DNA of 64,000 nucleotides from an uncultured Clostridium sp. (GCA_964649245.1 CAZYOS010000001.1:5242-69241); one strand, 5' to 3'; counted from the stretch's first letter, positions 2,898 through 33,108 are shown. Notes: generated by a model from the letters alone, not told the origin. Numbers and translations: made by a program.

Positions 2898-4061
2898 CTA
2901 TTTATCTTCTTTTCTATATTCAAAGAAATGAAATTTTTCATCAAAGAATATATATATTATCTTTAATATAGCCATTATTGGTGTTGCAAAAACCACTCCA
3001 AGTATACCAAAGAAGTATCCAAATATTAATAAACTTAATATAATTGTTATTGGACTTAAATTCATCTTTTTACTCATTACGTATGGTTGTAATAAGTTTC
3101 CATCTATAGTTTGTACTATTAATATGAATATTAATGTTAAGATTCCAATTATTGGACTTTCTGCAAATCCTATAGCGCCAGCAACAGCTGCTCCCATGTA
3201 AGGACCAATATAAGGAATTAAATTAGTAATAACACAAATGAATGCAATTAGTACAGGAGCATTTAATCCAATTATTGAAAACCCTATTATTGATACAACA
3301 AATAATAATAATGATAACCAAAGTGTTCCATTAACAAATGAATATAATGAATCACTTAATCTTTTAGTCAAATCTTTTACATCATCCCTATATTTTTTAG
3401 GAAAAATTGAAATAAAATTTTGTTGGAATTTCTCATAATCAAATAAAATATAAAATCCAATAATTAAACTCAATAATATATTACCTATTCCACTAGCTAG
3501 AGAAGATACTAAATTAACTGCAGTACTTGGTAAACTCTTTTCTATTCCTGATGCAAATTCAGTAATTCTCTTTAAGAATGATGTTTTAACATTATCTAAA
3601 TTTTGTAATGTCATATTTGATAATTTAGAAAACAATTCATTTATCCATTTGTTAACATCAGCAACTATATCTGGTATAGCACTCACAATATCTGATATTT
3701 GATTTCCTAATGAAGGTATAGTAAATGCAAAAATTGCATATATTACGAGTAATAAAATAATATAAGCAACTATTACTGCAAGAGTTCTACTCATCTTTTT
3801 ACTAGATAATTTTTTAACTAATGGATTAAGTAACCAAGCAATAAAGAATCCTATAAATAATGGTGATATTATTGATATTAACTTACCTAAAAATGATAAT
3901 ACACCCCATTCTTTAAATATTAAACTAAATACATAAATTAATAAAAGTATAAATAAAACATTTAGTGCTTTCATAATAGTATTACTATGATTAACTAACT
4001 CATTAATTTTAGATACATTTATCTTTTTCTCATCTGAATCTTTTTTAGCCATCTTTATCAC
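2898..4061 (-). CDS. AI-2E family transporter (PerM/YdiK-like, UPF0118)
   Basis: 387 aa with 7-8 TM helices. Conserved C-terminal block GNLLQPYVMSKKMNLSPITIILSLLIFGYFFGILGVVFATP is typical of AI-2E transporters. Confidence 0.75.
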   Translation of the reverse strand: MIKMAKKDSDEKKINVSKINELVNHSNTIMKALNVLFILLLIYVFSLIFKEWGVLSFLGKLISIISPLFIGFFIAWLLNPLVKKLSSKKMSRTLAVIVAYIILLLVIYAIFAFTIPSLGNQISDIVSAIPDIVADVNKWINELFSKLSNMTLQNLDNVKTSFLKRITEFASGIEKSLPSTAVNLVSSLASGIGNILLSLIIGFYILFDYEKFQQNFISIFPKKYRDDVKDLTKRLSDSLYSFVNGTLWLSLLLFVVSIIGFSIIGLNAPVLIAFICVITNLIPYIGPYMGAAVAGAIGFAESPIIGILTLIFILIVQTIDGNLLQPYVMSKKMNLSPITIILSLLIFGYFFGILGVVFATPIMAILKIIYIFFDEKFHFFEYRKEDK

Positions 4062-4092
4062 ATCCTTGATTTAATATTATCACAATTTTATT

Positions 4093-4120
4093 AAAAAAAA
4101 TAGTTCTAGAGAACTATTTT
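4093..4120 (-). terminator. rho-independent terminator after recD2
   Basis: Perfect palindrome AAAATAGTTCTAGAGAACTATTTT followed on the minus strand by a T8 run. Confidence 0.6.
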
Positions 4121-4275
4121 ACTTCTTTTACTCTTTTATTAGATGCTTTAAAATATGATTTTATTTCACTATTATATTTTTGATACAATAATGTTCCTCC
4201 TATTCCACATCCCAAAGCAACCATAGGCGCTATAACTTTAATAATATCACTCTCCTTTGATATTATTAGTATTAG

Positions 4276-6480
4276 TTAATTTATATTATTTATACATCCT
4301 AATAAAGTTTTTCTATTAGTTGCATATAATGTTTTAATAGATGTATTAAATGCATCAAGACTTCCAATTATTACCAAACTTTTTTTTGCTCTAGTAACTG
4401 CTGTATATATTAATTTATTATAAAACATTCTATTAAAACCTTTAGATAATATTACTACTACATTATCATATTCACTACCTTGAGATTTATGTATACTAAT
4501 AGCATAAGCTAAGTTAAACTTATCAAATTCTCCACTATGATATAAAACAATATTAGAAGAATAGTCAATAGCTACAACAAGCTTTTTATTTTCATAATAT
4601 ATTGATTTAATATAACCTATATCACCATTATAAATATTATTATCAACATCATTTACTAATTGAATTACTTTATCCCCAACTCTATAATATTTATCATTAA
4701 TAACAAATTTCTGATTATTTGGATTAAAAATATCAGACATAATAATGTTTAAATTATCTATTCCATTTAATCCCTTATACATAGGAACTAATACTTGGAA
4801 ATTATCAATACTAACTCCTTTACTGTTGACCTTATTACATATTTGTACTAAGTAGTTTATTATATTATCTTCACTAGATTCTATAAATTTAAAATCATCA
4901 TAACTTTCAATTTTATCAAAATACTTAATATTTTTAATATCATTAGCTAAGTATGTAATATAACTTCCTTCTTTAACACGATATATTTCACTTAAGTATT
5001 TATATTTTACTTTATCACTATTAATTAAATTATTAAGAATATCACCAGGGCCTATGCTTGGTAATTGATTAGCATCTCCAACTAATATTAGTTTAATATT
5101 TGATTGTAATCCTTTTAATAATGATGAAAATAAAAATATATCTATCATACTTGATTCATCAACTATTATAACTCTCTCTTTACTTTTATTATTTTCATTT
5201 ATTTGAAAGTCATTAGTTTCTTTATTCCATTTAAGATACTTATGAATTGTATATGCTGGAAAGATAACAGATTCACTCATCCTTTTAGCACTTCTACCAG
5301 TTGGTGCAAGAAGAACTATATCCTCTTCCTTATATTCATTTAAATCAAGTAATATATCAACAATAGCTTTTATTATTGTAGTTTTTCCTGTTCCAGGACC
5401 ACCAGTTACTATATAAAAATTATTTATAATGCTTTCTTTAATAGCTTCCTTTTGATATTTAGAAAATTCAATAGCATTTCTCTTTTCATATTCATCCATA
5501 AAATGATCTATTCTATCAACATCATATTTATTTTTAATATTATTAAGTCTTTCAATATTATTAATAATAATATTCTCTGTTTCATAGAAGTCTCTTAAAA
5601 TAAGCATATTATTTACTTCAACTATTTCAGAGTTATTAATTAATTTATTTACATGAAGAAGAAAAGTATCTAAAGAAAATACAGCTGTAAAACATTTCTT
5701 CATTTTAATTAATAATTCTTCTTTGCTAACTAATGTATTACCTGTTTCATAACACATATTATAAATATTATGTTTAATAAGAGCTTCTATTCTTATACTA
5801 CTATCTTCTTTATTATTCTTTAGATACATTAAATCTAATTTATCAAAAGATACATATTCTACTAAATCATAAATATTATTATCAACAATACTAAATAGTC
5901 TACTCTTATATAATGTTAATAAATCTATTGCTTCTTTAATACTAAATCCTAATGAATTTAATTTAATTATATAATCCTGATTAAGTTCATTATCTACTAT
6001 AACATCATGTAACATTTTAGCTTTTTTAGATGTCATTCCATGAACTAAGCTTATCTTTTCATAATCATCTTTAATTATTTTAATGGTATCTTTGCCATAC
6101 TTTTCTACTATTTTTTTAGCAGTTACAAGCCCTATTCCTTTAAACATACCGCTACTTAAATATAAAATAAGACTATCATTATCATCAGGTTCTCTTATTT
6201 CATAAGAACTAACACTAAATTGTGTCCCATACTTAGGATGGTTAATAAGTTCTCCATAAAAAATATATTCTAAATCAACATTTAATTCAGCAAAAGATCC
6301 AGTAAAACTTATTATTTTATCTACATATTCATTTAGTTCTTCAATATTAGTTTCCCTAACTTTAAAAATTCCAACTTTGTATGGACTAGTATCACTTTCA
6401 TAAATAAGCTTTCTAATGTTTCCTCTTATATATTTCTTCATACATAATATAATACCATAATAAAAAAAATAATTATACAA
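4276..6480 (-). CDS. recD2: RecD2-like ATP-dependent DNA helicase (RecD/TraA family)
   Basis: 734 aa. Walker A VTGGPGTGKTT, helicase motif V/VI SIHKSQGSEYDNVVV, N-terminal HhH region. Size and order match RecD2. Confidence 0.8.
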   Translation of the reverse strand: MYNYFFYYGIILCMKKYIRGNIRKLIYESDTSPYKVGIFKVRETNIEELNEYVDKIISFTGSFAELNVDLEYIFYGELINHPKYGTQFSVSSYEIREPDDNDSLILYLSSGMFKGIGLVTAKKIVEKYGKDTIKIIKDDYEKISLVHGMTSKKAKMLHDVIVDNELNQDYIIKLNSLGFSIKEAIDLLTLYKSRLFSIVDNNIYDLVEYVSFDKLDLMYLKNNKEDSSIRIEALIKHNIYNMCYETGNTLVSKEELLIKMKKCFTAVFSLDTFLLHVNKLINNSEIVEVNNMLILRDFYETENIIINNIERLNNIKNKYDVDRIDHFMDEYEKRNAIEFSKYQKEAIKESIINNFYIVTGGPGTGKTTIIKAIVDILLDLNEYKEEDIVLLAPTGRSAKRMSESVIFPAYTIHKYLKWNKETNDFQINENNKSKERVIIVDESSMIDIFLFSSLLKGLQSNIKLILVGDANQLPSIGPGDILNNLINSDKVKYKYLSEIYRVKEGSYITYLANDIKNIKYFDKIESYDDFKFIESSEDNIINYLVQICNKVNSKGVSIDNFQVLVPMYKGLNGIDNLNIIMSDIFNPNNQKFVINDKYYRVGDKVIQLVNDVDNNIYNGDIGYIKSIYYENKKLVVAIDYSSNIVLYHSGEFDKFNLAYAISIHKSQGSEYDNVVVILSKGFNRMFYNKLIYTAVTRAKKSLVIIGSLDAFNTSIKTLYATNRKTLLGCINNIN

Positions 6481-6481
6481 A

Positions 6482-8992
6482 TTATTTTTTTCTATAATCT
6501 TCTATTATAAGCATCATTAAAACAATTAGTCCAATGAATGATATAATTACTCCTGATGTTTTAAAAGGTGACTTGTATGTAAATATAATATTATGATTTC
6601 CAGCACTAATTTTAAATCCTATAAATCCATCATTAACATTTTCATAAGTAATGTTCTTACCATCTAAAAATATTGTAAATCCTTTTTGATATGGAATAGT
6701 TGTTACAAAATATCCATCTTTTATTGTATTAACTGAAGCATATATGTTATCACCTTTAGTTTTATTCTTATCAATGATAACTTTAGTTACTTTTTTATTT
6801 ATATTCTTAATGTCATTATAATCAAGATAATATAGTTTAATATTACCAATACTATATTTACCTTCATAGAAACTAATATTAAGTTTATCTATATTTGTTT
6901 CAGATAATACATATGTAAATGTAGTATTCCCATTATAATATTTCCATTCTTCACATGTTAATTTATTAGATATATTATTTATTCTAATTACTTGATCACC
7001 TATTTCACATGATTGTTTCAATTTCATATCAAGTTTAATCATAATTATTTTGTTTTTTGCTTCATCAGGTAAATTTGCAATAATTATTGATTTCTTTGAA
7101 GCAAAAAATGAATAAGTTTCATCTATCTTTTCAATGATTAAATCATTATACATTACATCTTTGACATTAAATTCATGAATACTACTGTTAAAAGAATTAT
7201 CAATTCCATCTTCTACTACAACATTATTAAGTAATATTTCATTTGAATAAGGGAAACTAATAGTATCAAATATCCCTTTATTAAATGAATTATAACTTAC
7301 ATACATATAAGGTAATACATCTTCATTAACATAAGATATAATATTATCTTCTTTCTCATATTTTTTATATCCAAATAATTGTTTATTATCGCTTAATAAA
7401 TATTTATCAGATGAAAACATTAGGAATAAAATATTAGCACTTGCTGTAGTAAATACCCTATTTCTTGACTGCATAGGATTATTAAATACATCATAATAAA
7501 ATTTATTATAAGTAACACTATGAATAGAAGAATAAGAATAATTCTGGTACATATCAATATTTCCAAATATGTTATTAGAATTTTCACTTATATCAAATAG
7601 AGTTGTAATTTTATATGAATCAGAATCTTTAGATGTAATAGAATCAACTAATGCTTTTTCATTATCATAATTCTTATAAGATATGTCATTCTTTAATACT
7701 AAACTATCTAAAGAATTACAAGTATAGGATATTAAAAATAATGAAACAATTAAATATATACTTAATAAATAATATTTTTTATATTTAGAACATACATATA
7801 TTATTAATACTGTTAAAAATATATCAATATACATAAAGTTTAAATTACTATCACTTAATGGTAAAGAAAATAAACAAACTACTACTGTTATAATAGATAT
7901 ATATTTTATATTTATTTTATTATTTAATATATTATTAATAAATATTGCTATTACAAAAACAAATAATGGTAAAAAAGGTATTAATGCTTTAGAATCAATA
8001 TACATAGTTCCATTTAATAAATAATTAAATAATGGGAAAATAATTGATAAAGATAATATTATTCCTAAAAATCTATTTTCTTTTTTCTTTGAAAAAAATA
8101 AATTTATTAAGGCAATTATTGATATTCCGCTTAATCCTAATCCATAATGATTATATATTAAATATGTAAGATGAACTTTAGGAACTAATAATTCTAAAAC
8201 ACTAACTTTAACAATTGATTCCATTCTTCCATCAAGTATTGCATAGAATTCTGGTAATATTAATACACATGAAAGCATTACACCAACTAATATTGGTAAT
8301 ATAAACTTTATTCCATCTTTCATAAAGCTTTTAAATGTTATCTTTTTATTTAATGAAATATATTTATATATTCCATAAGTAATAATACATATAATAGCTG
8401 GTATGCTGTAATAATAACTCATTAAAATTATTAATAAAACTGAAACTGTTAATAATGACTTTTTATTATTTTTAAAGTAATTGTCAACTCCAAATAAAGC
8501 CATAATTAAAAATGGCATGTAGTTTATAAACATAATATGTCTATGTGAATGAAATAATAAAGGACTAGCAAACATAAAGCATAATGTTGATGCAAAAGAT
8601 ACTTTTGAATCAAATCCATTGCTTTTTAAAAAGAAATAAAACATAATTATTGAAGCATACACTAATAATAATGTTGATATCATTATATAATATTTCATAC
8701 TGATAAATGGGAATAAATATGATAAAAGTATAACAGGATTTATAAGTCCATAATATGCATAATTATATATATTTTGTCCAGATCCTAAATTAAGAGCTAA
8801 ATTTGGAAAAAGTTTATGTGTATCATAAAATAATGTTCTAAAGTATTCAGGTATAACACTATGCTGATTAATCCAATCTAAATTAGAACCCCATAAGTAT
8901 TTATTTTTTAATAATAAAAGAATCATAATAACAAATAAAACCGTTACAATCATTAGTTTAGCAATATCATTTTTACCTATCTTATTCTTCAT
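6482..8992 (-). CDS. yfhO: YfhO-family GT-C membrane glycosyltransferase
   Basis: 836 aa. The N-terminal polytopic block QHSVIPEYFRTLFYD...NIYNYAYYGLINPVILLSYLFP aligns with the B. subtilis YfhO N-terminus. It has a large extracytoplasmic domain and a final C-terminal TM helix (VIISFIGLIVLMMLII), the YfhO architecture. Confidence 0.7.
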   Translation of the reverse strand: MKNKIGKNDIAKLMIVTVLFVIMILLLLKNKYLWGSNLDWINQHSVIPEYFRTLFYDTHKLFPNLALNLGSGQNIYNYAYYGLINPVILLSYLFPFISMKYYIMISTLLLVYASIIMFYFFLKSNGFDSKVSFASTLCFMFASPLLFHSHRHIMFINYMPFLIMALFGVDNYFKNNKKSLLTVSVLLIILMSYYYSIPAIICIITYGIYKYISLNKKITFKSFMKDGIKFILPILVGVMLSCVLILPEFYAILDGRMESIVKVSVLELLVPKVHLTYLIYNHYGLGLSGISIIALINLFFSKKKENRFLGIILSLSIIFPLFNYLLNGTMYIDSKALIPFLPLFVFVIAIFINNILNNKINIKYISIITVVVCLFSLPLSDSNLNFMYIDIFLTVLIIYVCSKYKKYYLLSIYLIVSLFLISYTCNSLDSLVLKNDISYKNYDNEKALVDSITSKDSDSYKITTLFDISENSNNIFGNIDMYQNYSYSSIHSVTYNKFYYDVFNNPMQSRNRVFTTASANILFLMFSSDKYLLSDNKQLFGYKKYEKEDNIISYVNEDVLPYMYVSYNSFNKGIFDTISFPYSNEILLNNVVVEDGIDNSFNSSIHEFNVKDVMYNDLIIEKIDETYSFFASKKSIIIANLPDEAKNKIIMIKLDMKLKQSCEIGDQVIRINNISNKLTCEEWKYYNGNTTFTYVLSETNIDKLNISFYEGKYSIGNIKLYYLDYNDIKNINKKVTKVIIDKNKTKGDNIYASVNTIKDGYFVTTIPYQKGFTIFLDGKNITYENVNDGFIGFKISAGNHNIIFTYKSPFKTSGVIISFIGLIVLMMLIIEDYRKK

Positions 8993-9004
8993 ACTATATA
9001 TATT

Positions 9005-9274
9005 TTAACACTTAATATTATTCATGTCATTAGAAACTTTTTTATCCTTTGAATGGTCATTAATCATTTTTTCTATTGACTTTGGAGTTCTAAGAGATTT
9101 TCTATCAATTCTTGTTGGTTGTATTTCAATTCCTAAGTCTTCTAATTCAGTGAATAATTCAATAAAGGCATATGAATCTAATAGTCCACTTTCTATCAAA
9201 TCAAAATTAGGATTATATACATTTTCATCCTCACATATTTTATATAATAGTTCTGATACATTAATCATATTCAC
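9005..9274 (-). CDS. dltC: D-alanyl carrier protein (DltC-type)
   Basis: ESGLLDSYAFIELFTELEDLGIEI...LRTPKSIEKMIN matches DltC (EEGLLDSFGTVELL...W.TP..I), including the phosphopantetheinyl Ser in LLDS. Confidence 0.7.
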   Translation of the reverse strand: MNMINVSELLYKICEDENVYNPNFDLIESGLLDSYAFIELFTELEDLGIEIQPTRIDRKSLRTPKSIEKMINDHSKDKKVSNDMNNIKC

Positions 9275-9728
9275 TCAACTTCTTTCTATCTATCTTTAAA
9301 TTTTTATTAACAGGCATTTTGTCTAATAATATGATCTTTTTAGGTATCATATATGCAGGTAAACTTTTAGTTAATTCTTTCTTTATATATTTTTCATCAT
9401 AGCACGATTCCAATACAACAAAAGCTACTATACTTTTAACTATATTATTTTTATTTAGCTTGGCGCTAACAACACTATCTTTAACACCTTTAATAATATT
9501 AATATTTCTTTCTATATCTTCAAGTTCAATTCTATAACCATTATATTTAATTTGATTGTCTTTTCTACCTTTGCAATATAATTTATTATCTTTTATATAA
9601 CCTATATCACCAGTTCTATAGCAGTTAATATTATTTTCTTTTGCAGAAATGTATTTAAAATATATATTCATCATTTCATCATTGATGTTAAATCTTAAAT
9701 TACCTAAATTTTCTAAAATATCTTTCAA
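9261..9728 (-). CDS. DltA-like adenylation enzyme, C-terminal subdomain only (A8-A10 motifs); N-terminal core absent
   Basis: 155 aa. YRTGDIGYIKDNKLYCKGRKDNQIKYNGYRIELEDIE is the A8 hinge motif and MPVNKNLKIDRKKL is the A10 lysine motif, collinear with the last 115 aa or so of DltA. It has its own RBS (AAAGAGG) and a sigma-A-like promoter, and overlaps dltC by 14 nt. Confidence 0.6.
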   Translation of the reverse strand: MKDILENLGNLRFNINDEMMNIYFKYISAKENNINCYRTGDIGYIKDNKLYCKGRKDNQIKYNGYRIELEDIERNINIIKGVKDSVVSAKLNKNNIVKSIVAFVVLESCYDEKYIKKELTKSLPAYMIPKKIILLDKMPVNKNLKIDRKKLSEYD

Positions 9729-9788
9729 TTTTTAACCTCTTTTCTTTTGAAAACTTAAAATTTGTGCCTTTTTTATACTCAACTCTTA

Positions 9789-9817
9789 TTTATACCCTTT
9801 ATTTACTAGATAGTTAA
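9789..9817 (-). promoter_or_regulatory. putative sigma-A promoter for the dltA'-dltC-yfhO-recD2 operon
   Basis: On the minus strand: TTAACT, a 17-nt spacer, then TATAAA, about 55 nt upstream of the ATG at 9728. Confidence 0.4.
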
Positions 9818-9904
9818 CCCCTTTATAAGAGTGCCGAAAAAAGTGCCGAAAACAAAATCACTTTAAATCACTTTGTGATACTTTATAATACTTTCAAAAT
9901 ATAA

Positions 9905-9945
9905 AAAATCTTGAAAACATTGGGCTTTCAAGATTTTAATTAGTA
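9905..9945 (-). terminator. rho-independent terminator downstream of tRNA-Arg
   Basis: Minus strand: TCTTGAAAGCCCAATGTTTTCAAGA hairpin followed by TTTTTTATATTTT. Confidence 0.65.
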
Positions 9946-9951
9946 AAATAA

Positions 9952-10028
9952 TGGCGTCCTTGGGCAGATTCGAACTGCCGACTTACCGCTTAGGAGGCGA
10001 TTACTCTATCCTACTGAGTTACAAGGAC
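9952..10028 (-). tRNA. tRNA-Arg (anticodon CCU)
   Basis: Hand-folded cloverleaf: acceptor GTCCTTG/CAAGGAC, D-arm ACTC/GAGT, anticodon stem ATCGC/GCGGT with loop CTCCTAA, T-arm GGCAG-TTCGAAT-CTGCC, CCA encoded. Confidence 0.85.
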
Positions 10029-10070
10029 ATTTTAGGACATTTATATATGTCCTTTTCCCATAGCCTAATA

Positions 10071-10110
10071 CTTAGGAGGGAGGTGCTCTATACAGCTGAG
10101 CTACATAGAC
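10071..10110 (-). other. tRNA-like 5' half (acceptor + D-arm + anticodon stem-loop CCT) with no 3' half
   Basis: GTCTATG-TA-GCTC-AGCTGTATA-GAGC-A-CCTCC-CTCCTAA, then sequence that cannot close the anticodon stem and has no T-arm. Followed by hairpin GGACATTTATATATGTCC (10035-10052). Confidence 0.4.
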
Positions 10111-10119
10111 ATATAATTA

Positions 10120-10620
10120 TTAATTGTTAATCAAATTAATAACAAATATAATAAATAGATTAGTTGTTAATTTCACTTCATATCTAAAAAATTCATAAAT
10201 ACTAACTATTTTATCACACAAACAAACTACTTTTGATTCCGGATAATAAGGAACAACATGTGTTAAGGGAAACATATGTGTTTTAATTACATTTTCTTCG
10301 ACATCATTTACATTAAAATAATCAATAGAATTATTATATGCAATTAAAGGGTGATTTTTCAAGTATTTATTATATTCTTTTTTATTAACATCTTCTTTAA
10401 CAAAGAAATCATGCATCATTGCGCCTCTTGTGCATGATATATAATCTAAATGTAATTTTTTAGAAACAAAAAAACTCATCTTAGAAACTCTACTAATATG
10501 ATCTAATCTGTTATTACCATGATGTATAATAGATTTCATTTCTCTATATTTATTTACTTTATAAAATTCATTATAAATTTCATAATATTCTTTTATGTAC
10601 TTCTTCATAATTAAATCCAT
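10120..10620 (-). CDS. HD-domain phosphohydrolase (small, single domain)
   Basis: H..H...RV block (HHGNNRLDHISRV), HD dyad in GAMMHDFF, later His/Asp (THMFP, LCDKIV). Confidence 0.55.
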   Translation of the reverse strand: MDLIMKKYIKEYYEIYNEFYKVNKYREMKSIIHHGNNRLDHISRVSKMSFFVSKKLHLDYISCTRGAMMHDFFVKEDVNKKEYNKYLKNHPLIAYNNSIDYFNVNDVEENVIKTHMFPLTHVVPYYPESKVVCLCDKIVSIYEFFRYEVKLTTNLFIIFVINLINN

Positions 10621-24404: not shown

Positions 24405-25568
24405 CTATTTTGAAGGATTTTGTTTATCATGACAAATTATTTTTTTAATAATTTGCTTACTTTTAATAATAATTCTAGTATACAAAGACTTAGTTGCATA
24501 TTTTTTTGATAATTTATCAAAAGATGTATTATTCAAATCTTTAAAAAATTTTTTTCTGTTTTTTGGTGATTTAGATGATAACTTCAAACTACTATTATTT
24601 TTTAATATCTCATCAATACTACATTTCTTATATACTAAATCTTTTTTAATACAATCAAATATTTCTTTTCCAATATTCGTATTAATAATTATCGCTGATA
24701 CGCCTTCTTTATTATATATCTCAGGATAATAACTCTTTACACCCCAAAAATCTCCAAGAGTAATATCCGAATATTTATTATCCAATTTAAAATTACAATT
24801 ATAACAACTTTCTCTAAGTGCAACATCACATAAAAATAATTTCATATATGAATTTTCAGATGCTAATTCACATATATTTTTTTTCTTAAATTTAGCTGTA
24901 TTAGAGTATGTATCCCATCCAGTTGAATTATCCCTAAAATTATATTCAATTAATTTGTCATTATTATTAAGTTCTAATTCATCAACATATTTTTTATATA
25001 ATTTTGGACTTGGAACACCATGACAAAATAAATCAATGCAAATTAAATTACTATTCTCTTCTCTAATAAAAGACTTTAGTCCTGCTACTTGACAAGGAGT
25101 CCCTACAAACAATACTTTTCTAGTTTTTATATTTGATTTAATCTCAATAAAAATGTTTTTTAAATCGCTTTGTAAATATTTTGAACCTTTTAATTTTTCA
25201 AGATTTTTAATATCTTTTACAATATAATGCTCCAGTCTATTATTATTAAAAGCAGCACCAACTACAATACCATTATCAGATAAAATATTTTTTGCAATTA
25301 ATTCAAATATCCCTCCAGAAGAAGATGTCTTTCTACTATTAATATTTTTATTATATCCAGCATAACAAATATTTATAGATTTATTATTATTTTTATTTAT
25401 TACTGGACACTTCTTTTTGCATAAACCACAATTAATACATTTTTTTTCATCAATATTAGGATAACTAAAACCATCTATATCCTCTATCATACTAATTGCC
25501 CTCTTAGGGCAAGAATTATAGCAAGCACCACAACCAGTACAACACTTTTTATTTACTATCTCTTTCAT
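24405..25568 (-). CDS. Fe-S flavoprotein of the coenzyme F420 hydrogenase/dehydrogenase beta-subunit (FrhB/FdhB-like) family, polysaccharide-modification associated
   Basis: N-terminal 2x[4Fe-4S] ferredoxin motifs (CCTGCGACYNSCP, CINCGLCKKKCP), then an FrhB-like body. Last gene of the glycan operon, adjacent to the pyruvyl transferase. Confidence 0.55.
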   Translation of the reverse strand: MKEIVNKKCCTGCGACYNSCPKRAISMIEDIDGFSYPNIDEKKCINCGLCKKKCPVINKNNNKSINICYAGYNKNINSRKTSSSGGIFELIAKNILSDNGIVVGAAFNNNRLEHYIVKDIKNLEKLKGSKYLQSDLKNIFIEIKSNIKTRKVLFVGTPCQVAGLKSFIREENSNLICIDLFCHGVPSPKLYKKYVDELELNNNDKLIEYNFRDNSTGWDTYSNTAKFKKKNICELASENSYMKLFLCDVALRESCYNCNFKLDNKYSDITLGDFWGVKSYYPEIYNKEGVSAIIINTNIGKEIFDCIKKDLVYKKCSIDEILKNNSSLKLSSKSPKNRKKFFKDLNNTSFDKLSKKYATKSLYTRIIIKSKQIIKKIICHDKQNPSK

Positions 25569-25585
25569 ATATTATCACCTCATAT

Positions 25586-27115
25586 TTATTTTTTACTTGT
25601 AATCATTTTAATTTTATCTAATAATAGTTTAACATATTTCTTTTCATATGAATTAAATTCTAAGAAATATAAAAGTAAAAAATAAATAATAGAATAAATA
25701 ATAATATATAAGATAAATATAAATCCAGAATCAACTAACAAGTATTGTTTAAAAATTAAAGCACCTATAGTAATAAGAATTATTATTATAAACATTTTTC
25801 CTATTTTTTTGAAAAACTTTATCATATTTAAATTTAATGATTTTTGATAATAAATATTTCTTATGATAACATTACATAATATTAATGAAAGTGATGTACC
25901 TATGGCTGCGCCTAATCCACTATATAGTTTTATCAGTGGTATACTAATAATTACATTTAAAATTGAAGATAAAAATAAAATTATAGACATAAATTTTTGT
26001 TTCTTTTTTGCTTGCATAATACTAATTCCGACATTTTGTACTAGGGGAATTATCACTGGTATCATAAGTGCTAAAGCAATAAAATATGATTCGTAATATT
26101 TTTTTCCAACCCAATATAATATGAACTTTTCACCAAATATAATAAATCCACTTAATATTAGACCAACTACAATTAATTGTATTCTACCTGTTCTAATCAT
26201 CATGTTAGTTAAATCATCATCACTACATCCATTATCAATCATTTTTGTAACTTTAGGTAATAAAACTCCCGAAATAGCCGTTGAAAAAGAAATATATATT
26301 TGATTTATTTGAGATGCTATTGAATATATCGATACGCTTACTGTACCAGTAATCGTACCTAATAAAAAATTATCTAAACTCCAATTTATTTTATCAACAA
26401 ATGAATTTAAAAACATCCAGAAAGATAAAGAAAAAATTTCAATTATTAACAACTTATTCAATTTGCATTTTTTTATAGATATTTTTAATTTTTTCTTACA
26501 AAATATATAATTAGAAACATTACACGCAATATTTAATATTGTTAGTACAATACACAATGCTATTGATCTAAAACCAAAATATAGTAATGGTATCATTATA
26601 CATGGTGTAATAATAATTCTAATTATATTAACTATTTTAGCATATATAAATTTCTCATAAGAAGTAATTATTGAGTTATAGATACTAAAAGCAAATGTTA
26701 TAACTAAATTAATAATAAGTATAATCATTAATTTTCTTGCTAATATAATTTCAATTACATCTAATGAATTTTTAAATATATTTCCTATATTAAAATAAAT
26801 AATAATTCCTAATATTAAAGCAACAATTCCTGTAATTAAATATAATAAAGCAAAAGTACCATATAACTTTTCTTCTCCGATTTTATCATTTTTTTTCTTA
26901 TATCTTGTAGAAAAAATTACTATTGCATTTCCAAAGCCAAAATCAAGTAACATTAAATATGATATTACAGATGTAACTAAAGAATACAATCCATATTCTG
27001 ATTGCCCTAATTTACCTGTCAATATGGGCGTATAGATTAATGCTACTAATAAGTTTAAAAAAATAATAATATAGGATAACACTGCACCTATTTTTCTTTG
27101 TTTACTATCACTCAT
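25586..27115 (-). CDS. wzx: Wzx-type oligosaccharide flippase (MOP superfamily polysaccharide biosynthesis protein)
   Basis: 509 aa, about 14 TM helices, no soluble domain. Position inside the glycan operon. Confidence 0.7.
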   Translation of the reverse strand: MSDSKQRKIGAVLSYIIIFLNLLVALIYTPILTGKLGQSEYGLYSLVTSVISYLMLLDFGFGNAIVIFSTRYKKKNDKIGEEKLYGTFALLYLITGIVALILGIIIYFNIGNIFKNSLDVIEIILARKLMIILIINLVITFAFSIYNSIITSYEKFIYAKIVNIIRIIITPCIMIPLLYFGFRSIALCIVLTILNIACNVSNYIFCKKKLKISIKKCKLNKLLIIEIFSLSFWMFLNSFVDKINWSLDNFLLGTITGTVSVSIYSIASQINQIYISFSTAISGVLLPKVTKMIDNGCSDDDLTNMMIRTGRIQLIVVGLILSGFIIFGEKFILYWVGKKYYESYFIALALMIPVIIPLVQNVGISIMQAKKKQKFMSIILFLSSILNVIISIPLIKLYSGLGAAIGTSLSLILCNVIIRNIYYQKSLNLNMIKFFKKIGKMFIIIILITIGALIFKQYLLVDSGFIFILYIIIYSIIYFLLLYFLEFNSYEKKYVKLLLDKIKMITSKK

Positions 27116-27130
27116 TAACTTCTCTTTCCA

Positions 27131-28186
27131 TTATTTTAATGCTTTAGTTAAAAAGTCTTCACTTTTCTTTCTTTCATTAGCAAGTATTTTGTATGATTTT
27201 TCATAGTTGCATTCTAAATCAACTTTTTTAATTTTACCAGAAAACCTTCTATTATTCAAATCAAACTTATTAAGAAGCGTATCAATTCTAGAAGTCATGC
27301 TCTTAAGATTATTTTGTTTCCTATCAAAAACTATAAATGGTCTATTATATAATATTGCAAATACACAAGAATGAAATGAATCAGTACATATCAAAAAAGC
27401 ATGTTTCTCTAAATATAGAAATTCACTTGGCCCACATACATAATATTTGCTTTTTAGATCCAATATATTAATTATTTCACATCCATTTTCTTTTGCTACT
27501 CTTTCTATTTCAACTTTCTTATCATTAGATAATTCTCCTAAAAAATAATTTAATATATATTTTTTACAATCTAGCATTTTAGGTTTAATAGACACTTTGT
27601 CCCAATCTTTAGATGTTAATAACATTGTAGGATCTACAAGAACTTCAACATCATTTCTTCCTGTTAAATCTTCAACTATTTTCTTACCAGCATCCTCTCT
27701 AACAGAAATTGCTTTAAACTTAATTAACTCTTTGCTTGCTTGTTTCTTAATATTATCTGGTAATTCACTTACTCCAAAGCTTGCAGAAAAAGATATTTTA
27801 TTTCCATTAATATTGGTTAATAAATCTAACTTACTCATCCTTTTAATGCATGGATTCCATACTTGATCACTTCCAACAACATAATTATTAAATCCTGATA
27901 TCTTTTTAGGAGAATAATAGTTATATATTCTTTTTGAAAACACCATATTTGATTCATTAAATTTTTTAAATTTTTTTTCTCTTAATATTTGTTTTTCACT
28001 TTTTTGTTTATAATTTAATATTTTTTTCACAATTATTTTAAATTTAGTAATTAATTGAAAATCATCATTTCTAATAATTTCACAACCTAAACCCAATTTT
28101 TTTATAAATATATACAAAGCATAATTTTGTAATCTGTTTCCAAAATTATTTAAATCATAAATGCTGATTAATGCGACATTTTTCAT
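27131..28186 (-). CDS. polysaccharide pyruvyl transferase (CsaB/WcaK family)
   Basis: N-terminus MKNVALISIYDLNNFGNRLQNYAL is typical of the PS_pyruv_trans family (G-x-x-N-x-G-D/N). Confidence 0.7.
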   Translation of the reverse strand: MKNVALISIYDLNNFGNRLQNYALYIFIKKLGLGCEIIRNDDFQLITKFKIIVKKILNYKQKSEKQILREKKFKKFNESNMVFSKRIYNYYSPKKISGFNNYVVGSDQVWNPCIKRMSKLDLLTNINGNKISFSASFGVSELPDNIKKQASKELIKFKAISVREDAGKKIVEDLTGRNDVEVLVDPTMLLTSKDWDKVSIKPKMLDCKKYILNYFLGELSNDKKVEIERVAKENGCEIINILDLKSKYYVCGPSEFLYLEKHAFLICTDSFHSCVFAILYNRPFIVFDRKQNNLKSMTSRIDTLLNKFDLNNRRFSGKIKKVDLECNYEKSYKILANERKKSEDFLTKALK

Positions 28187-29100
28187 TTTTTCACCTTATT
28201 TTTAATATAATTAATCGAAATATAAAGTTTTATACTTCTAATACCATTGACAAATTTAAATTTATTTATTGCTTTTTCATATTTCGAATAATATTTTTTA
28301 ATTTCATTTATACTTAATCCTTGTCTATATGCATCTTTTAATCTATAAACTATTAATGCTGGTAGTCTATAATTCAATAGTGCTGATTTTTCGCTTTTAG
28401 ATAATTGCATCTCTTTAATGATCTTATTTATTACAAAATAATCATCATCTATTTTATTTATTTTAAAATTTGACAATTTTACATTAGATGCGTTATTGTT
28501 GTATAATACTAAATTTTCTTTCAAAAATATTATTTTTTTACTATGGAAAATTGCTTTGCTAAAAAATTCAAAATCCTCTCCCCAGCTTAGTTTATCCGTA
28601 AATGAAAGTTTGTTTTTTTGTATAATACTATTTCTTATAACAAAGCAAGATGTCTGCAATTTTAATTTATTCAAAAAATAGTATTTTAAGCATTCTTCTT
28701 TATAATATTCTTTTGTAATCTTTGTACTATTATTACTTAAAAATGAACTATATCCACAATAACATAAATCTGCATCTTCTTTAATTAATTTATTATTAAT
28801 TTTCAACAAAAAACCTTGCTCATATTTATCATCAGAATCTAAAAAGCAAATAAAGTCCCCTGATGCTTTTTTTAATCCAAAGTTTCTTGCACTAGAAACT
28901 CCACCATTTTTTTTATTTAATAAAGTTATTTGATCATATTTTTTTTTCATTTTTTTGCATATATTAATTGAATTATCTGTTGAACCATCATTTACTATAA
29001 TTATTTCATAGTTAATATATGATTGCAAAACTACAGATTCTATTGTATTTTCAATTGTCTTTTCAGCATTATACATTGGGATAATTATTGAATATCGCAT
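28183..29100 (-). CDS. family 2 glycosyltransferase
   Basis: IIIPMYNAEKTIENTIESVVLQSY..YEIIIVNDGSTDNS GT-A fold N-terminal motif, DxD (LDSDD). Confidence 0.8.
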   Translation of the reverse strand: MRYSIIIPMYNAEKTIENTIESVVLQSYINYEIIIVNDGSTDNSINICKKMKKKYDQITLLNKKNGGVSSARNFGLKKASGDFICFLDSDDKYEQGFLLKINNKLIKEDADLCYCGYSSFLSNNSTKITKEYYKEECLKYYFLNKLKLQTSCFVIRNSIIQKNKLSFTDKLSWGEDFEFFSKAIFHSKKIIFLKENLVLYNNNASNVKLSNFKINKIDDDYFVINKIIKEMQLSKSEKSALLNYRLPALIVYRLKDAYRQGLSINEIKKYYSKYEKAINKFKFVNGIRSIKLYISINYIKNKVKK

Positions 29101-29114
29101 ATTTTTACTCTCCT

Positions 29115-30101
29115 TTATAATTTTATAATTCCCTTATTTTTTAAAAATACATAACTTTTTAATATATATCTACCAAGACTAATTCCAAATATTTTAAATA
29201 TTATATTACACATTTTTACTTTATGGCTTTCACTATTTTCTAATACATATTTGTATGTTAATATTTCTTTATATTTTTTTCTACTACAATTTTGCTTATT
29301 TATCAATGCTAGTAATATAGTATATTGATAAGCAAGATAATTTAAATAAATATTTTTTAATTTTAAATTATTATATTCTTTTTCACTCCAAAATTTTATT
29401 ATATAAAATAATGAATCAATATTATTCTTGCTTAAATTTGTAGTAACTGAACCTTCTCTTTGTTGCCTATAAACATATATATCTTCATTTATTAACTTTA
29501 TTGAATTACAATGAGAATATAATTTTAATGACCAGTCTATATCTTCTAATAATATCTTCTCATCAAAGAAAATTTTATTTTCAATTACTATACTTCTTTT
29601 TACAAATTTATTACATGGTGATATTGATAAGTCTTCACTTTTTACTAATTCATTCAAAATATCTAGATAATTTTCACATTTCACATTATAATTTCTTAAA
29701 TATATGTATTTATTTAATTTTTCATAATAATACATCATCTTATATTGTACTATGTCATCATTTAATTTTATGGATAAAAAATTGATTTTGTTTGAAATAA
29801 AATCATCACTATCAATAAACATTAAATATTCTCCGGATGAATGATTAATTCCGCAGTTTCTTGCACTTGATGCTCCTCCATTTTTTTTATGAAAAACACT
29901 TATTTCATTATATTTATCACTATATTCATCACATATTTTTCCACTATTATCTGTTGAACCGTCATCTACTAATATAATCTCGTAGTTTTCAATATTTGCA
30001 TGTAAAATGCTATCAACACATTTATTTATATATTTATCAACATTATAAACAGGTATAATAATACTTAATTTTTTCATATTTCCTCCTAGAATAAATAGCA
30101 C
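29115..30101 (-). CDS. family 2 glycosyltransferase
   Basis: LSIIIPVYNVDKYINKCVDSIL..YEIILVDDGSTDNS, DxD (IDSDD). Confidence 0.8.
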   Translation of the reverse strand: MLFILGGNMKKLSIIIPVYNVDKYINKCVDSILHANIENYEIILVDDGSTDNSGKICDEYSDKYNEISVFHKKNGGASSARNCGINHSSGEYLMFIDSDDFISNKINFLSIKLNDDIVQYKMMYYYEKLNKYIYLRNYNVKCENYLDILNELVKSEDLSISPCNKFVKRSIVIENKIFFDEKILLEDIDWSLKLYSHCNSIKLINEDIYVYRQQREGSVTTNLSKNNIDSLFYIIKFWSEKEYNNLKLKNIYLNYLAYQYTILLALINKQNCSRKKYKEILTYKYVLENSESHKVKMCNIIFKIFGISLGRYILKSYVFLKNKGIIKL

Positions 30102-31099
30102 AATATTAATAACGAAGCAATAAAAACATAATAATATTTTTTATATTTTTTATCAAAAATCACATAAGATAGTGGTACATTAACTATTAAAGCAGGAAGG
30201 AAGTAAGGAAGTAATCTGTGAAATAAAATATCATTAGTAGCATTAAAAGATACTATAACTAATAGTAGTAAATAATTAAAATAAACATTGTAATTATCTA
30301 TTTTACTATATTTTTTATAGAAAAACAAAATAATAATTAATATTACAAAACAAAAGAAAAAATTTGTATAATTAGATACTTGATTGAATTTGTCTATTGC
30401 TACTACATATCTATAATAATAACCGCTATCAATTAAAGTAAATATTTTAAAAACTATTTTTGAATTAAAAAACAATTTGATAAATAATGATAAAGAGACT
30501 GTAATAATAAGCTTTAATTTAAGACTAAATTTTACATTCAAAATAGGATAAATAAGAAATAATAATAATGCACTAATATGAAAACAACTTGCTATAATTA
30601 TGCAAATAATATATTTAAGCAACTTTTTTTTAATAATATATTTAAAAGAATAAAGAAAAATAGCGCAAGCTATCCATTGCCGTATTATATTATAACTTGG
30701 CATTAGCATTCCAAAAGTTATAAATACTAATATTCCAAAATCATAATCATCAACGTTTTCTCTAGCAAATATGTATGTAAAATAAGATATTATGAAAGAA
30801 GAAACTAGAAAAAAAGAAAAGTGACTTCTAAATAATGCTCTTAAAGTTATAATTAAAACATTATACCCTATATTAATAAAAGAAGTAATTGCCGTTGTAC
30901 TATAAAAAAGATTCTTGTATACTTCATAATCAGTACCAATAATTTTAGAATCAAAAAGCAACTCTCTAAAACCAGAAAATACTATTAATGAAAATAAAGA
31001 AAAAAACATTAAATATTTTTTGTCTTTACTATTATTACATCTTTTGGACAAAAATAATGGAATAAAAACAAATAATATTAGAATTATTTTTAAAATCAC
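30086..31099 (-). CDS. wzy: Wzy/EpsG-type oligosaccharide repeat-unit polymerase
   Basis: 337 aa, about 10 TM helices with one larger loop. Located between the GT genes of the operon. Confidence 0.5.
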   Translation of the reverse strand: MILKIILILFVFIPLFLSKRCNNSKDKKYLMFFSLFSLIVFSGFRELLFDSKIIGTDYEVYKNLFYSTTAITSFINIGYNVLIITLRALFRSHFSFFLVSSFIISYFTYIFARENVDDYDFGILVFITFGMLMPSYNIIRQWIACAIFLYSFKYIIKKKLLKYIICIIIASCFHISALLLFLIYPILNVKFSLKLKLIITVSLSLFIKLFFNSKIVFKIFTLIDSGYYYRYVVAIDKFNQVSNYTNFFFCFVILIIILFFYKKYSKIDNYNVYFNYLLLLVIVSFNATNDILFHRLLPYFLPALIVNVPLSYVIFDKKYKKYYYVFIASLLILCYLF

Positions 31100-31105
31100 A
31101 ACTTA

Positions 31106-32221
31106 TTAACACTCCCTTTCATATATTTTTTTATAATATTCTAAAGTAATATTTAAGTCATAAATAGCAGACTTTTTTATATTACTTTTTTTCATCAAAT
31201 TAACATTTACCTTTTTATTATAAATTTTATTTATAGAATCTATAAAGTTTACTGAATCATTTTGATTAACAATAAATCCATTTATACCATTTTCAACTAA
31301 ATCTCTATTTCCCCTACAATTAGTAGCTACTATTGGAAGTCCAGAAGCCATAGCTTCAATTATATTTACAGGAAGTCCCTCACTTTTGCTTGAAGATAAT
31401 GCTAAATCAGATATCTTTAATAGTTCTGGAATATCTGTCCTAAATCCAAGTAAATGAACATTAGATAAGTTAAGTTTGTTAATAAGTAAACCAATTTTAT
31501 TATCTAAATCGTCTCTTCCAGCTAATAACAAATGCATATTTGAGTTATTTGAAAGAGGATTTTTTAATGTATTAATAAGCCACTCTTGATTTTTCCTATT
31601 TGTCAATTCAGCAGTATATATCATAACAAAATCATCTTTATTAATTCCTAATGATTTTCTTATGCTAACTCTTTTTTCTTCACTCATAATAATATTGAAT
31701 CTACTAATGACTATTCCAACTCCTCCAGGAATATATTCTATTCTACTATGGAAATGTTTTTTTGCTCTATTATAATCTTCTTTATTTATCGTTATTATAG
31801 TATCAGTATATCTAGATAAAAATTTTTCAATATTATAAAAAATTATCCAGTAGAATAATGATGCACCTTTATAAAAATGAAAACCATGAGCAGTATAAAT
31901 AACTCTAGTTTTATTTACTTTTCTAGTCCTTATAGATGCTAAACGAGTAATGACTCCTCCAACTGGAGTATGACAATGAATAATGTCAAATTTTTCTTCA
32001 TTGATGATCTTTCTCAAGTTAATTAATGCTTTTATATTCCTTAATTTAAAGGGACTTCTTTCAAAAAAGATACAATGCTTTACATCACAATACGGAATGG
32101 TATCACTACCATTCGTTGCAACATGTACTTCATACCCTTTATCCTTAAAATATTTTAAATATGGAATATGAAAACATTTAATATGTGAGTCTACAGTGGC
32201 TGTAAATAATACTTTTTTCAT
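31106..32221 (-). CDS. family 4 (GT-B) glycosyltransferase
   Basis: C-terminal EX7E-type block SKSEGLPVNIIEAMASGLPIVATNCRGNRDLV. Confidence 0.8.
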   Translation of the reverse strand: MKKVLFTATVDSHIKCFHIPYLKYFKDKGYEVHVATNGSDTIPYCDVKHCIFFERSPFKLRNIKALINLRKIINEEKFDIIHCHTPVGGVITRLASIRTRKVNKTRVIYTAHGFHFYKGASLFYWIIFYNIEKFLSRYTDTIITINKEDYNRAKKHFHSRIEYIPGGVGIVISRFNIIMSEEKRVSIRKSLGINKDDFVMIYTAELTNRKNQEWLINTLKNPLSNNSNMHLLLAGRDDLDNKIGLLINKLNLSNVHLLGFRTDIPELLKISDLALSSSKSEGLPVNIIEAMASGLPIVATNCRGNRDLVENGINGFIVNQNDSVNFIDSINKIYNKKVNVNLMKKSNIKKSAIYDLNITLEYYKKIYEREC

Positions 32222-32838
32222 TACTTTTCCTTTTTATTACTTTTTTTTAACCATGCTATTTCTTCTTGAATAGATGATTTAGATGTTGATACGCCTTTAC
32301 CATCAAACAGTTGAACTAATGTCTTAAAAAATATTTTTATATCTAATCCAAAACTAAAATGTTCTACATAAAAAACATCATAGTTTATTCTATCACTTAG
32401 AGTCAATCTATTTCTTCCACTACATTGTGCCAGTCCCGTTATTCCAGGTAACACTTCACATCTTCTTTTTTGAGAAGCATTAAAATTATTATAATAATCA
32501 GTTATCCATGGCCTAGGTCCTATAAAGGACATATCGCCTTTTATAATATTTAAGACTTGAGGCAATTCATCAAATGATAATTTTCTTAAAATTAAACCTA
32601 TTTTAGTTTTTTTATCTTCACATGAAGTATCATATACATCATTGTCTAGCATCATACTTCTAAATTTATATAAAGTAAATATTTTACCATTTAATCCATT
32701 TCTCTCTTGTTTAAATATTATTGGCCCTTTTGATTCAATTTTGATAGATATAGCAATAATTAATAACAAAGGCCAAAAAATAATCAAAAAAAGAATTGAA
32801 ATTAATATATCAATTATACGTTTTATATATTTATACAT
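32221..32838 (-). CDS. undecaprenyl-phosphate sugar phosphotransferase (bacterial sugar transferase, WbaP/CpsE C-terminal domain type)
   Basis: Single N-terminal TM helix, then DELPQVLNIIKGDMSFIGPRP and RCEVLPGITGLAQ motifs. Confidence 0.85.
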   Translation of the reverse strand: MYKYIKRIIDILISILFLIIFWPLLLIIAISIKIESKGPIIFKQERNGLNGKIFTLYKFRSMMLDNDVYDTSCEDKKTKIGLILRKLSFDELPQVLNIIKGDMSFIGPRPWITDYYNNFNASQKRRCEVLPGITGLAQCSGRNRLTLSDRINYDVFYVEHFSFGLDIKIFFKTLVQLFDGKGVSTSKSSIQEEIAWLKKSNKKEK

Positions 32839-32985
32839 TGAAAATCACCTTAATTGTTAAAAAGCATAAATGAGACATAGCAAAACCTTTCAATTATAAC
32901 AATAAAATATCAAGACTGATACTTCTTACTTAATGTTATCATAAAAGAATATTTTAGTAAAGAAATTGTCATAAAATGTGTACAT

Positions 32986-33011
32986 TAAAAAGGACTATAT
33001 TATATAGTCCT
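32986..33011 (-). terminator. rho-independent terminator after the LCP gene
   Basis: AGGACTATATAATATAGTCCT palindrome followed by T5 on the minus strand. Confidence 0.6.
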
Positions 33012-33108
33012 ACTTTACATCACTTTTGCTTGCAGAAACACACGATGCAAAAACAAACAACATTAATAATATTATAATCATATCTTATTATATGATTATA
33101 GCGTTACA

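Follow-up and report, generated by a model that had tools for sequence, protein, structure and literature searches.

The described systems nearest to the locus reported here are the dltABCD system, with its adenylating enzyme DltA and its carrier DltC, the YfhO/CsbB/GtcA-type systems, by which B. subtilis and Listeria glycosylate their lipoteichoic or wall teichoic acid (PMC5836110, PMC7389260 and PMC8035078), and the tRNA-adjacent hot spots of genomic islands. The locus lies in a stretch of 64 kb (64,000 nucleotides; hereafter the window) from an uncultured Clostridium sp., and the element in question consists of two overlapping open reading frames (ORFs) on the minus strand: an ORF of 155 amino acids (aa; 9261-9728), the homologous part of which is a DltA-like 3' fragment, and a DltC-like carrier ORF of 87-89 aa (9268/9274-9005). 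Both stand between a complete gene for tRNA-Arg(CCT) and yfhO. We consider it highly probable (roughly 0.85) that the two ORFs are a non-functional remnant, a cassette fragment of ~604 bp that lies beside a damaged tRNA gene.

The likeness to dltABCD is that DltA and DltC are the best NCBIfam families for the two ORFs and that the motifs A7, A8 and A10, as well as the carrier serine motif, are present; the difference is that the window ORF has no core, that the scores stay below threshold and that no DltB or DltD was recognised. In terms of descent the two ORFs fall into the ANL adenylating-enzyme and the carrier-protein families, with DltA and DltC as closest named relatives. A canonical dltA-dltB-dltC-dltD locus was encountered in a much more distant relative (L127), and canonical partners were seen only there. 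The YfhO of the window belongs to the same Pfam family as that of the YfhO/CsbB/GtcA systems, but no CsbB-like or GtcA-like partner was identified adjoining yfhO and no link to a dlt fragment has been demonstrated. With the genomic-island hot spots the locus shares a partial and a complete tRNA with lineage-specific cargo directly downstream, but here a whole functional tRNA, and not just its 3' end, is of foreign type. The event was therefore not a simple site-specific integration. Neither an integrase nor a direct att repeat was found at the locus. A last comparison concerns VanW domains, which were shown in 2024 to be the catalytic domains of cysteine-dependent L,D-transpeptidases (PMC11348318): the intact cassettes described below have VanW and a full adenylating enzyme, whereas the window has neither.

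The DltA/DltC-like fragment and its intact relatives

The 155-aa ORF matched Pfam AMP-binding_C (E 9.4e-7; 30.1 bits, cut-off 24.5) and aligned to the NCBIfam DltA models at profile positions 370-504 of 504 only (E 7e-35), with a score of 120.5 bits that does not reach the DltA family cut-off of 559.85 (TIGR01734 / NF003417). A preliminary description of the locus, made from the sequence alone, had claimed this DltA-type similarity, and it is borne out by these hidden Markov models. The ORF starts with TTG (9728) and has its first ATG at codon 19, and the DltA homology begins at codon 30 (window 9641, KENNINCY), the first 29 codons not being DltA-like. The fragment (9264-9641) comprises 126 codons and contains the A7, A8 and A10 motifs. 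As it begins before A7 (YRTGD), it is slightly more than the C-terminal subdomain alone for which it had been taken. The A8 and A10 motifs reported earlier are indeed there: the A8 hinge (GRKDNQIKYNGYRIELEDIE) and NLKIDRKKL are present, and A8 GRKDNQIKY and A10 K(I)DRKKL align with the relatives, the A10 glycine being substituted (NGK to NLK).

The extent of the fragment is sharply delimited. Similarity to the family is confined to window positions 9038-9641, both in tblastn with the closest full-length relatives and in blastn against all fetched loci, and the left edge falls exactly at 9641 in about 10 of 21 nucleotide alignments and in 4 of the 4 protein alignments shown. Within these limits the fragment is 59-68% identical in protein and 69-74% in nucleotide sequence to the C-termini of full-length relatives; the nearest of these are 62-68% identical and the synonymous sites are saturated. 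No adenylation core was found upstream of 9641 in any frame by tblastn with four longer relatives at very permissive settings, which upholds the reported absence of the N-terminal core and speaks against a core displaced into another frame by a sequencing error; nor was a core found by tblastn anywhere in the 64-kb window. The D-alanine specificity pocket is part of this missing core. The start of the ORF lies 223 nt from tRNA-Arg(CCT), so that the closeness of the tRNA (earlier given as 220 nt from an ATG) stands, while the start codon is a different one. Neither a VanW protein nor a TraX protein nor an Sfp-type phosphopantetheinyl transferase was found within the window, and dltB and dltD, which had been reported missing, were not recognised in it either, as judged by reading through the translated ORFs and by scanning 10 more ORFs (not every ORF) with Pfam.

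The carrier ORF encodes 87 aa from the ATG at 9268 and overlaps the 155-aa ORF by 8 nt. Its best match is DltC (NF003464, E 1.2e-9), but it scores below the curated cut-offs for DltC (TIGR01688 / NF003464), with 38.0 against 68 and 36.1 against 52.35 bits, so that of the overlapping "bona fide" DltC gene proposed before, the overlap and the family resemblance remain and the qualifier does not. It is collinear with 13 relatives, shares 63-73% identity with the carriers at most of the close cassette loci (56% with that of L055 and 55% with that of L056) and is longer than every relative in the alignment: the homology spans 9038-9268 and does not extend past the final sense codon that the carrier gene has in the relatives, and the last 10 codons (9008-9037) form a non-homologous read-through tail that was gained through loss of the stop codon. 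No phosphopantetheinyl transferase or ligase core that could load the carrier was found within the window. The carrier stop is separated from the start of yfhO by 12 nt.

A metagenome scan for DltA-like relatives yielded 80 loci. The N-terminal core was present directly upstream of the matched region in 72 of them, and in six of the seven remaining loci that were listed again the contig ends 25-370 nt upstream of the match (the seventh, L065, is treated below). A homologue of yfhO was found at 0 of the 80 loci. The nearest homologue, 67% identical, is on metagenome scaffold L001; a run of N is all that divides the adenylating gene there. Relatives of the close subfamily, at 59-68% identity, share a conserved set of three genes, for a VanW-domain protein (275-297 aa), an enzyme resembling DltA (461-475 aa) and a carrier resembling DltC (74-83 aa) (L001 6196-9514, L043 854-3325, L045 47-2521, L046 1109-3604, L048 4002-6425, L050 6140-8593, L051 3962-6437, L054 6140-8590 and L135-L139). 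The VanW protein of this cassette is soluble, without a transmembrane-like segment, and carries a GGGxCQ motif. The neighbours often include a divergent upstream gene for an Sfp-type phosphopantetheinyl transferase and sometimes one for a TraX-family or Wzy_C membrane protein; MBOAT (DltB) and DltD were not found beside the close-subfamily cassettes. The full-length relatives score 406-424 bits on the DltA models (cut-offs 476 and 559.85) and their carriers 28-38 bits on those of DltC (cut-offs 52 and 68). By these comparisons the parent of the fragment is the VanW / DltA-like / DltC-like cassette and not a canonical dltABCD operon.

The tRNA-Arg/yfhO locus and its relatives

With RecD2 as the query, a genome scan picked up uncultured Bacilli from the gut, 39 species in all, whose labels vary between "Clostridium sp.", Bacilli, Erysipelotrichaceae and Mollicutes; the synteny covers recD2 in all 39. 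In some 25 of these the locus is arranged alike, with rseP first and then a gene of 123 aa, the HD gene, tRNA-Arg(CCT), variable DNA, yfhO, recD2 and a gene for an AI-2E-type permease. The comparison of syntenic loci, which the preliminary description had put forward as a check, was made on these ~25 relatives, and in none of them was dltA or dltC found at the locus. The stretch between tRNA and yfhO is variable (0.1-6 kb), its cargo differing by lineage. In the closest relatives (L005 and L124) no more than ~180 bp, which hold first a terminator and then a promoter, lead from the tRNA to yfhO; the RecD2 of L005 is 76% identical to that of the window and the YfhO of both relatives ~57%. yfhO is missing altogether in L007 and L008.

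Various kinds of cargo were seen downstream of the tRNA. L004 carries a gene of the LPG_synthase_TM family (3468-5118), L009-L014, L019 and L027 also have cargo, which in the L009 group consists of small genes of unknown function and a gene of 420-460 aa, and L017 has a lineage-specific variable region (4212-10001). Variable cargo likewise occupies ~1500-7500 in L021-L023 and L042, where the ORFs of L021-L023 resemble a tRNA synthetase and a P-type ATPase by eye only. L005, L018 and L124 are empty between tRNA and yfhO.

The yfhO gene of the window (6482-8992, minus strand) encodes 836 aa and matches Pfam YfhO (PF09586) end to end (163.3 bits, gathering score 28.5, E 1.2e-47; residues 20-818 to profile positions 6-835 of 835), a family of GT-C-type membrane glycosyltransferases; the earlier report of an 836-aa YfhO 12 nt past the carrier was accurate. 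Orthologues that are 48-59% identical occupy the same place before recD2 in ~20 related species, so yfhO is a resident gene that has been inherited vertically. The recD2 gene (4276-6480, minus strand; TIGR01448, 646 bits, cut-off 500) follows after 1 nt, as had been stated, only if it starts at an upstream TTG; the gap is ~40 nt from the ATG at 6441. The ATG at 6441 is probably the true start, since in most RecD2 orthologues the alignment sets in only at about residue 11-14 and recD2 of L124 is called from 36 nt past yfhO.

A promoter-like site with an extended -10 element (ATGACA-17-TGtTAAAAT, 9030-9002, minus strand; 10 of 12 matches, TG present) lies 9 nt before the ATG of yfhO. It was recovered in a promoter scan and has the same layout as the sites in relatives, where TTGACx-17-TGTAAAAT or TGnTATAAT stands 7-18 nt before the ATG (L004, L005, L009-L011, L018 and L041). 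Because yfhO has its own promoter of a type typical for the clade, transcription from the fragment would not be needed. The site sits within the 10-codon non-homologous tail of the carrier, and the carrier ORF ends where it does by running into the yfhO promoter region. The linkage of yfhO with recD2 is ancestral and does not depend on any carrier gene. The clade's yfhO promoters lie so near the ATG, without a Shine-Dalgarno sequence, which suggests that the yfhO mRNAs are leaderless or have a very short leader.

The upstream side of the locus holds a rearrangement. Read along the minus strand (10620 to 4276), the first feature is the HD-family gene (10120-10620), followed by the 5' half of a tRNA-Arg(CCT) gene (10071-10111, positions 1 to ~40), a junction filler of 42 nt (10029-10070) and the complete tRNA-Arg(CCT) gene (9952-10028; called by ARAGORN, Rfam tRNA 63.4 bits). 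The tRNA half, which is cut after the anticodon loop and lies directly upstream of the complete tRNA, is identical at 38 of 40 positions to L124 and at 37 of 40 to L004 and L024, the type of the closest relatives (blastn, E 8e-10 for L004 and 2e-11 for L024). ARAGORN and Rfam do not call it, and it is too short to score in Rfam, which on this locus recovers the complete tRNA only. The complete tRNA is 89.7% identical to that of L008 and 88.9% to that of L017 (87-90% across the more distant relatives L008, L017 and L022), as against 72.8% to that of the close relative L004. The filler was not found to have a counterpart in the relatives; in these the tRNA directly adjoins the HD-family gene or shares some sequence with it. 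Since a half of native type precedes a complete tRNA of another sequence type, the resident tRNA was broken and replaced, and the pair is the scar of a rearrangement. The 2 differences in 40 positions of the half from the closest relative are, as a rough indication, compatible with a moderately recent event.

The complete tRNA is followed by an intrinsic terminator (9905-9937, minus strand; 14-pair stem and T run), one of a kind found 3 times where 0.3 would be expected; this strong terminator isolates the fragment from upstream transcription. The DNA between it and the fragment (9642-9904, minus strand) is of unassigned origin and contains repeats, a promoter-like motif, the ribosome-binding site, the TTG start and the 29 non-homologous codons, and it had no match in ~130 loci, in phage and plasmid records or in viral contigs. 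The TTAACT-17-TATAAA motif previously called a promoter is present (9817-9789), but such matches occur at chance level (48 found, 47.0 ± 7.9 expected in DNA of 25% G+C). The repeats are tandem and direct: TTTTCGGCACT occurs twice at 9852-9830 with a period of 12 nt, and AAAGTGATTT twice at ~9860-9880, both on the minus strand. A mobile element that has since been lost could have left them behind as sites for protein binding; the 23-nt double repeat (TTTTCGGCACT twice) had no match in viral contigs, and L021 has a different repeat pair at the same place after the tRNA. An origin of the inserted block from a phage or plasmid was considered and rejected, as phage and plasmid records match at the level of the tRNA only; the best viral DltA-like relative is 44% identical. 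Among possible donors a tRNA was found beside the cassette at 0 of 15 cassette loci.

Origin and state of the fragment

As the locus lacks a dlt operon in every relative examined, the fragment would have been brought in and would not be the residue of a resident operon that decayed. We propose that incoming DNA, which bore a tRNA-Arg gene as well as a cassette's 3' end, entered the tRNA-Arg/yfhO spacer by recombination, with the left join in the anticodon loop of the resident tRNA and the right join just upstream of the yfhO promoter. The replacement tRNA-Arg and ~0.3 kb of DNA from an unassigned source would have come along, and what is left (9038-9641) would be a complete carrier gene, preceded by no more of the adenylating enzyme than its final 126 codons. 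The cassette may have been complete on arrival, with VanW and the 5' 70% of the adenylating gene disappearing later, or it may have been truncated beforehand. The fragment's nearness to yfhO and recD2 would then be an accident of the landing site. The suggestion that the locus is a stump left by a rearrangement at the tRNA finds support in the sharp boundary and the tRNA scar, but the stump would not be that of a resident operon, nor its parent dltABCD.

With the ATP- and amino-acid-binding core gone, the product should be unable to adenylate or to load the carrier, and the pair is most likely non-functional; the missing core, the upstream terminator, the lost stop codon of the carrier and the lack of a promoter above chance all favour inactivity. 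Several observations weigh against this interpretation. The TTG start is preceded by a usable ribosome-binding site (AGAGG, 9740-9736, 7-nt spacer), as had been noted earlier, both ORFs are open without frameshift or stop, the carrier keeps the LLDS serine and all positions conserved in the family, and the fragment has 2 lineage-specific changes in 50 conserved positions, compared with 0-12 in intact relatives. Moreover, the species is represented in the databases by one genome and one 989-bp contig, possibly from the same sample, so that conservation within the species cannot be judged, and the searches for the core covered the 64-kb window, so that a full-length partner may exist elsewhere in the genome. 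On the other hand, one of the two private changes is the A10 glycine (NGK to NLK), and intactness of the ORFs is weak evidence of function because few substitutions create stops: ~6.4% of single substitutions would do so, which gives a probability of remaining open of 0.35 at 2.5% and of 0.12 at 5% neutral divergence. The chance that the 29 non-homologous codons stay open in this base composition is ~0.07.

The intact carrier, complete in its conserved residues, and the lack of excess change at conserved sites would also be expected if the carrier, and perhaps the C-terminal piece, worked in trans with a complete enzyme or cassette elsewhere, this locus being a partial duplicate in a genome of which 64 kb were seen. 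We regard this as unlikely, given that VanW, an Sfp-type phosphopantetheinyl transferase and an adenylation core were all not found in the window, that the carrier has lost its stop codon and bears an odd 10-residue tail, that the evidence for a promoter does not go beyond chance, and that a second copy of near-identical sequence is missing from the protein database, where the best other match is 67% identical and comes from other samples. An assembly error would have to take the form of a 604-bp piece spliced in at short shared A-rich words, as apparently happened in L065, where a chimeric join is possible at the same motif (AAAGAAAAT / YKENGI). We consider this very unlikely: it requires two false joins 600 bp apart where the locus is collinear in all other respects, both joins are covered by a Logan contig from a separate assembly (L003, 989 bp) with 100% identical protein, and the tRNA half with its second tRNA is an independent sign of a real rearrangement.

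The preliminary description had placed the fragment in one operon with yfhO and recD2, and had raised the possibility of a decoration system, not described so far, that pairs YfhO with a D-alanyl-type carrier. The 12-nt spacing and the shared strand of all genes fit such an arrangement, as does the action of YfhO-family enzymes on teichoic acids in other Firmicutes (PMC5836110). YfhO-type enzymes are, however, described within multi-component transmembrane glycosylation systems (PMC8035078). The operon does not hold, as the gene neighbourhood does not recur in ~20 yfhO-recD2 loci or in 80 DltA-like loci. The decoration system is the least probable of all the explanations considered and is contradicted by the comparison of loci, for a carrier gene occurs at 0 of ~20 yfhO-recD2 loci and yfhO at 0 of 80 DltA-like loci, the yfhO-recD2 linkage is ancestral, yfhO has a conserved promoter of its own, and nothing in the window was found able to load the carrier. 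YfhO-type enzymes use lipid-linked sugars and are not known to use acyl-carrier thioesters, which also counts against it. More broadly, it is very improbable that the truncated piece and the carrier have been kept for a function, be it a carrier loaded in trans that feeds a surface modification involving YfhO, or a free subdomain with a carrier-binding or regulatory role.

The fragment, a gene remnant in a variable stretch next to a tRNA, is ordinary and matters little in itself; its host is a rare Firmicute of the gut with a small genome. It does carry the caution that genes of a strongly strand-biased, AT-rich genome need not belong to one operon because they are closely spaced on the same strand. 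The conserved VanW / DltA-like / DltC-like cassette, which lies outside the window, is the more interesting by-product. Literature searches recovered no paper that links VanW to an adenylating enzyme and a carrier, and no description of the cassette. The cassette may be a small cytoplasmic acyl-transfer system, in which a thioester on the carrier is passed to the VanW cysteine and on to an amine acceptor, and may thus hint that VanW domains can take part in acyl transfer in the cytoplasm.

Stand-alone C-terminal pieces and further genes of the window

Short proteins with "AMP-binding_C only" are frequent in the protein catalogue, but every such protein that was followed up adjoins its core, the split being caused by a contig end, a 100-nt scaffold gap (L001, L138 and L139) or a frameshift (L002, L126 and L127). 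In the proteins of 107-108 aa (L135-L137) the frameshift lies right after the core (...EYLPV|G...) and recurs in independent assemblies. The three loci (~5850-6000) belong to one widespread gut species and have a 321-aa core ORF and a 107-aa C-terminal ORF; the same frameshift was found in clusters P0168-P0183, on tens of contigs from different samples, and would mark either a pseudogene that has become fixed or a frameshift that translation reads through. L002 (5614-12909) is a small cluster of the non-ribosomal peptide synthetase (NRPS) type from a spore-former, with a 417-aa core ORF and a 140-aa C-terminal ORF 1 nt apart; this split of the adenylation domain could be natural or a frameshift.

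In L065 (~3900-4424) a 62-residue WecE-like fragment (TIGR02379, E 2.4e-14) is joined to a DltA-like 3' end at a motif common to both genes, YKE(N/K)GI. Both parents, AT-rich genes, are intact elsewhere (P0148 at 95% and P0147 at 93% identity); L065 also contains GC-rich DNA (46-58% G+C), and the first 3.9 kb of the contig have about twice the G+C of the last 0.5 kb. Comparison of its upstream DNA with that of the window was not significant (z = 1.8; 26 of 500 shuffles reach the score), nor was the protein comparison, and L065 and the window are each closer in identity to the intact gene of L044 than to each other. L065 is probably a chimeric join, made in assembly, that merely looks like an orphan C-terminal domain. 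The idea that such subdomains form a recurrent family of stand-alone proteins was considered and rejected, L065 being best read as chimeric and the 107-aa proteins frameshift halves beside their core. The fragment in the window would be the only true orphan seen, and "C-terminal domain only" proteins in metagenome catalogues should be treated with caution, since contig ends, scaffold gaps, frameshifts or chimeras account for nearly all of them.

The window has a G+C content of 24.6% and nearly all of its genes are on the minus strand; at the locus the G+C is 20-24% throughout, so that base composition is uninformative as a sign of foreign DNA. Further along, at 24405-34578 on the minus strand, lies a cell-surface polysaccharide cluster of the Wzx/Wzy type, which encodes an LCP-family (LytR_cpsA_psr) protein, a Bac_transf priming transferase, a GT4 and two GT2 glycosyltransferases (the latter at 28183-30101), a pyruvyl transferase, an EpsG-family polymerase, a Polysacc_synt flippase and an FrhB/FdhB-like iron-sulfur protein. 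The organism is therefore walled, in spite of a very low G+C content and the "Mollicutes/Tenericutes" labels of some of its relatives.

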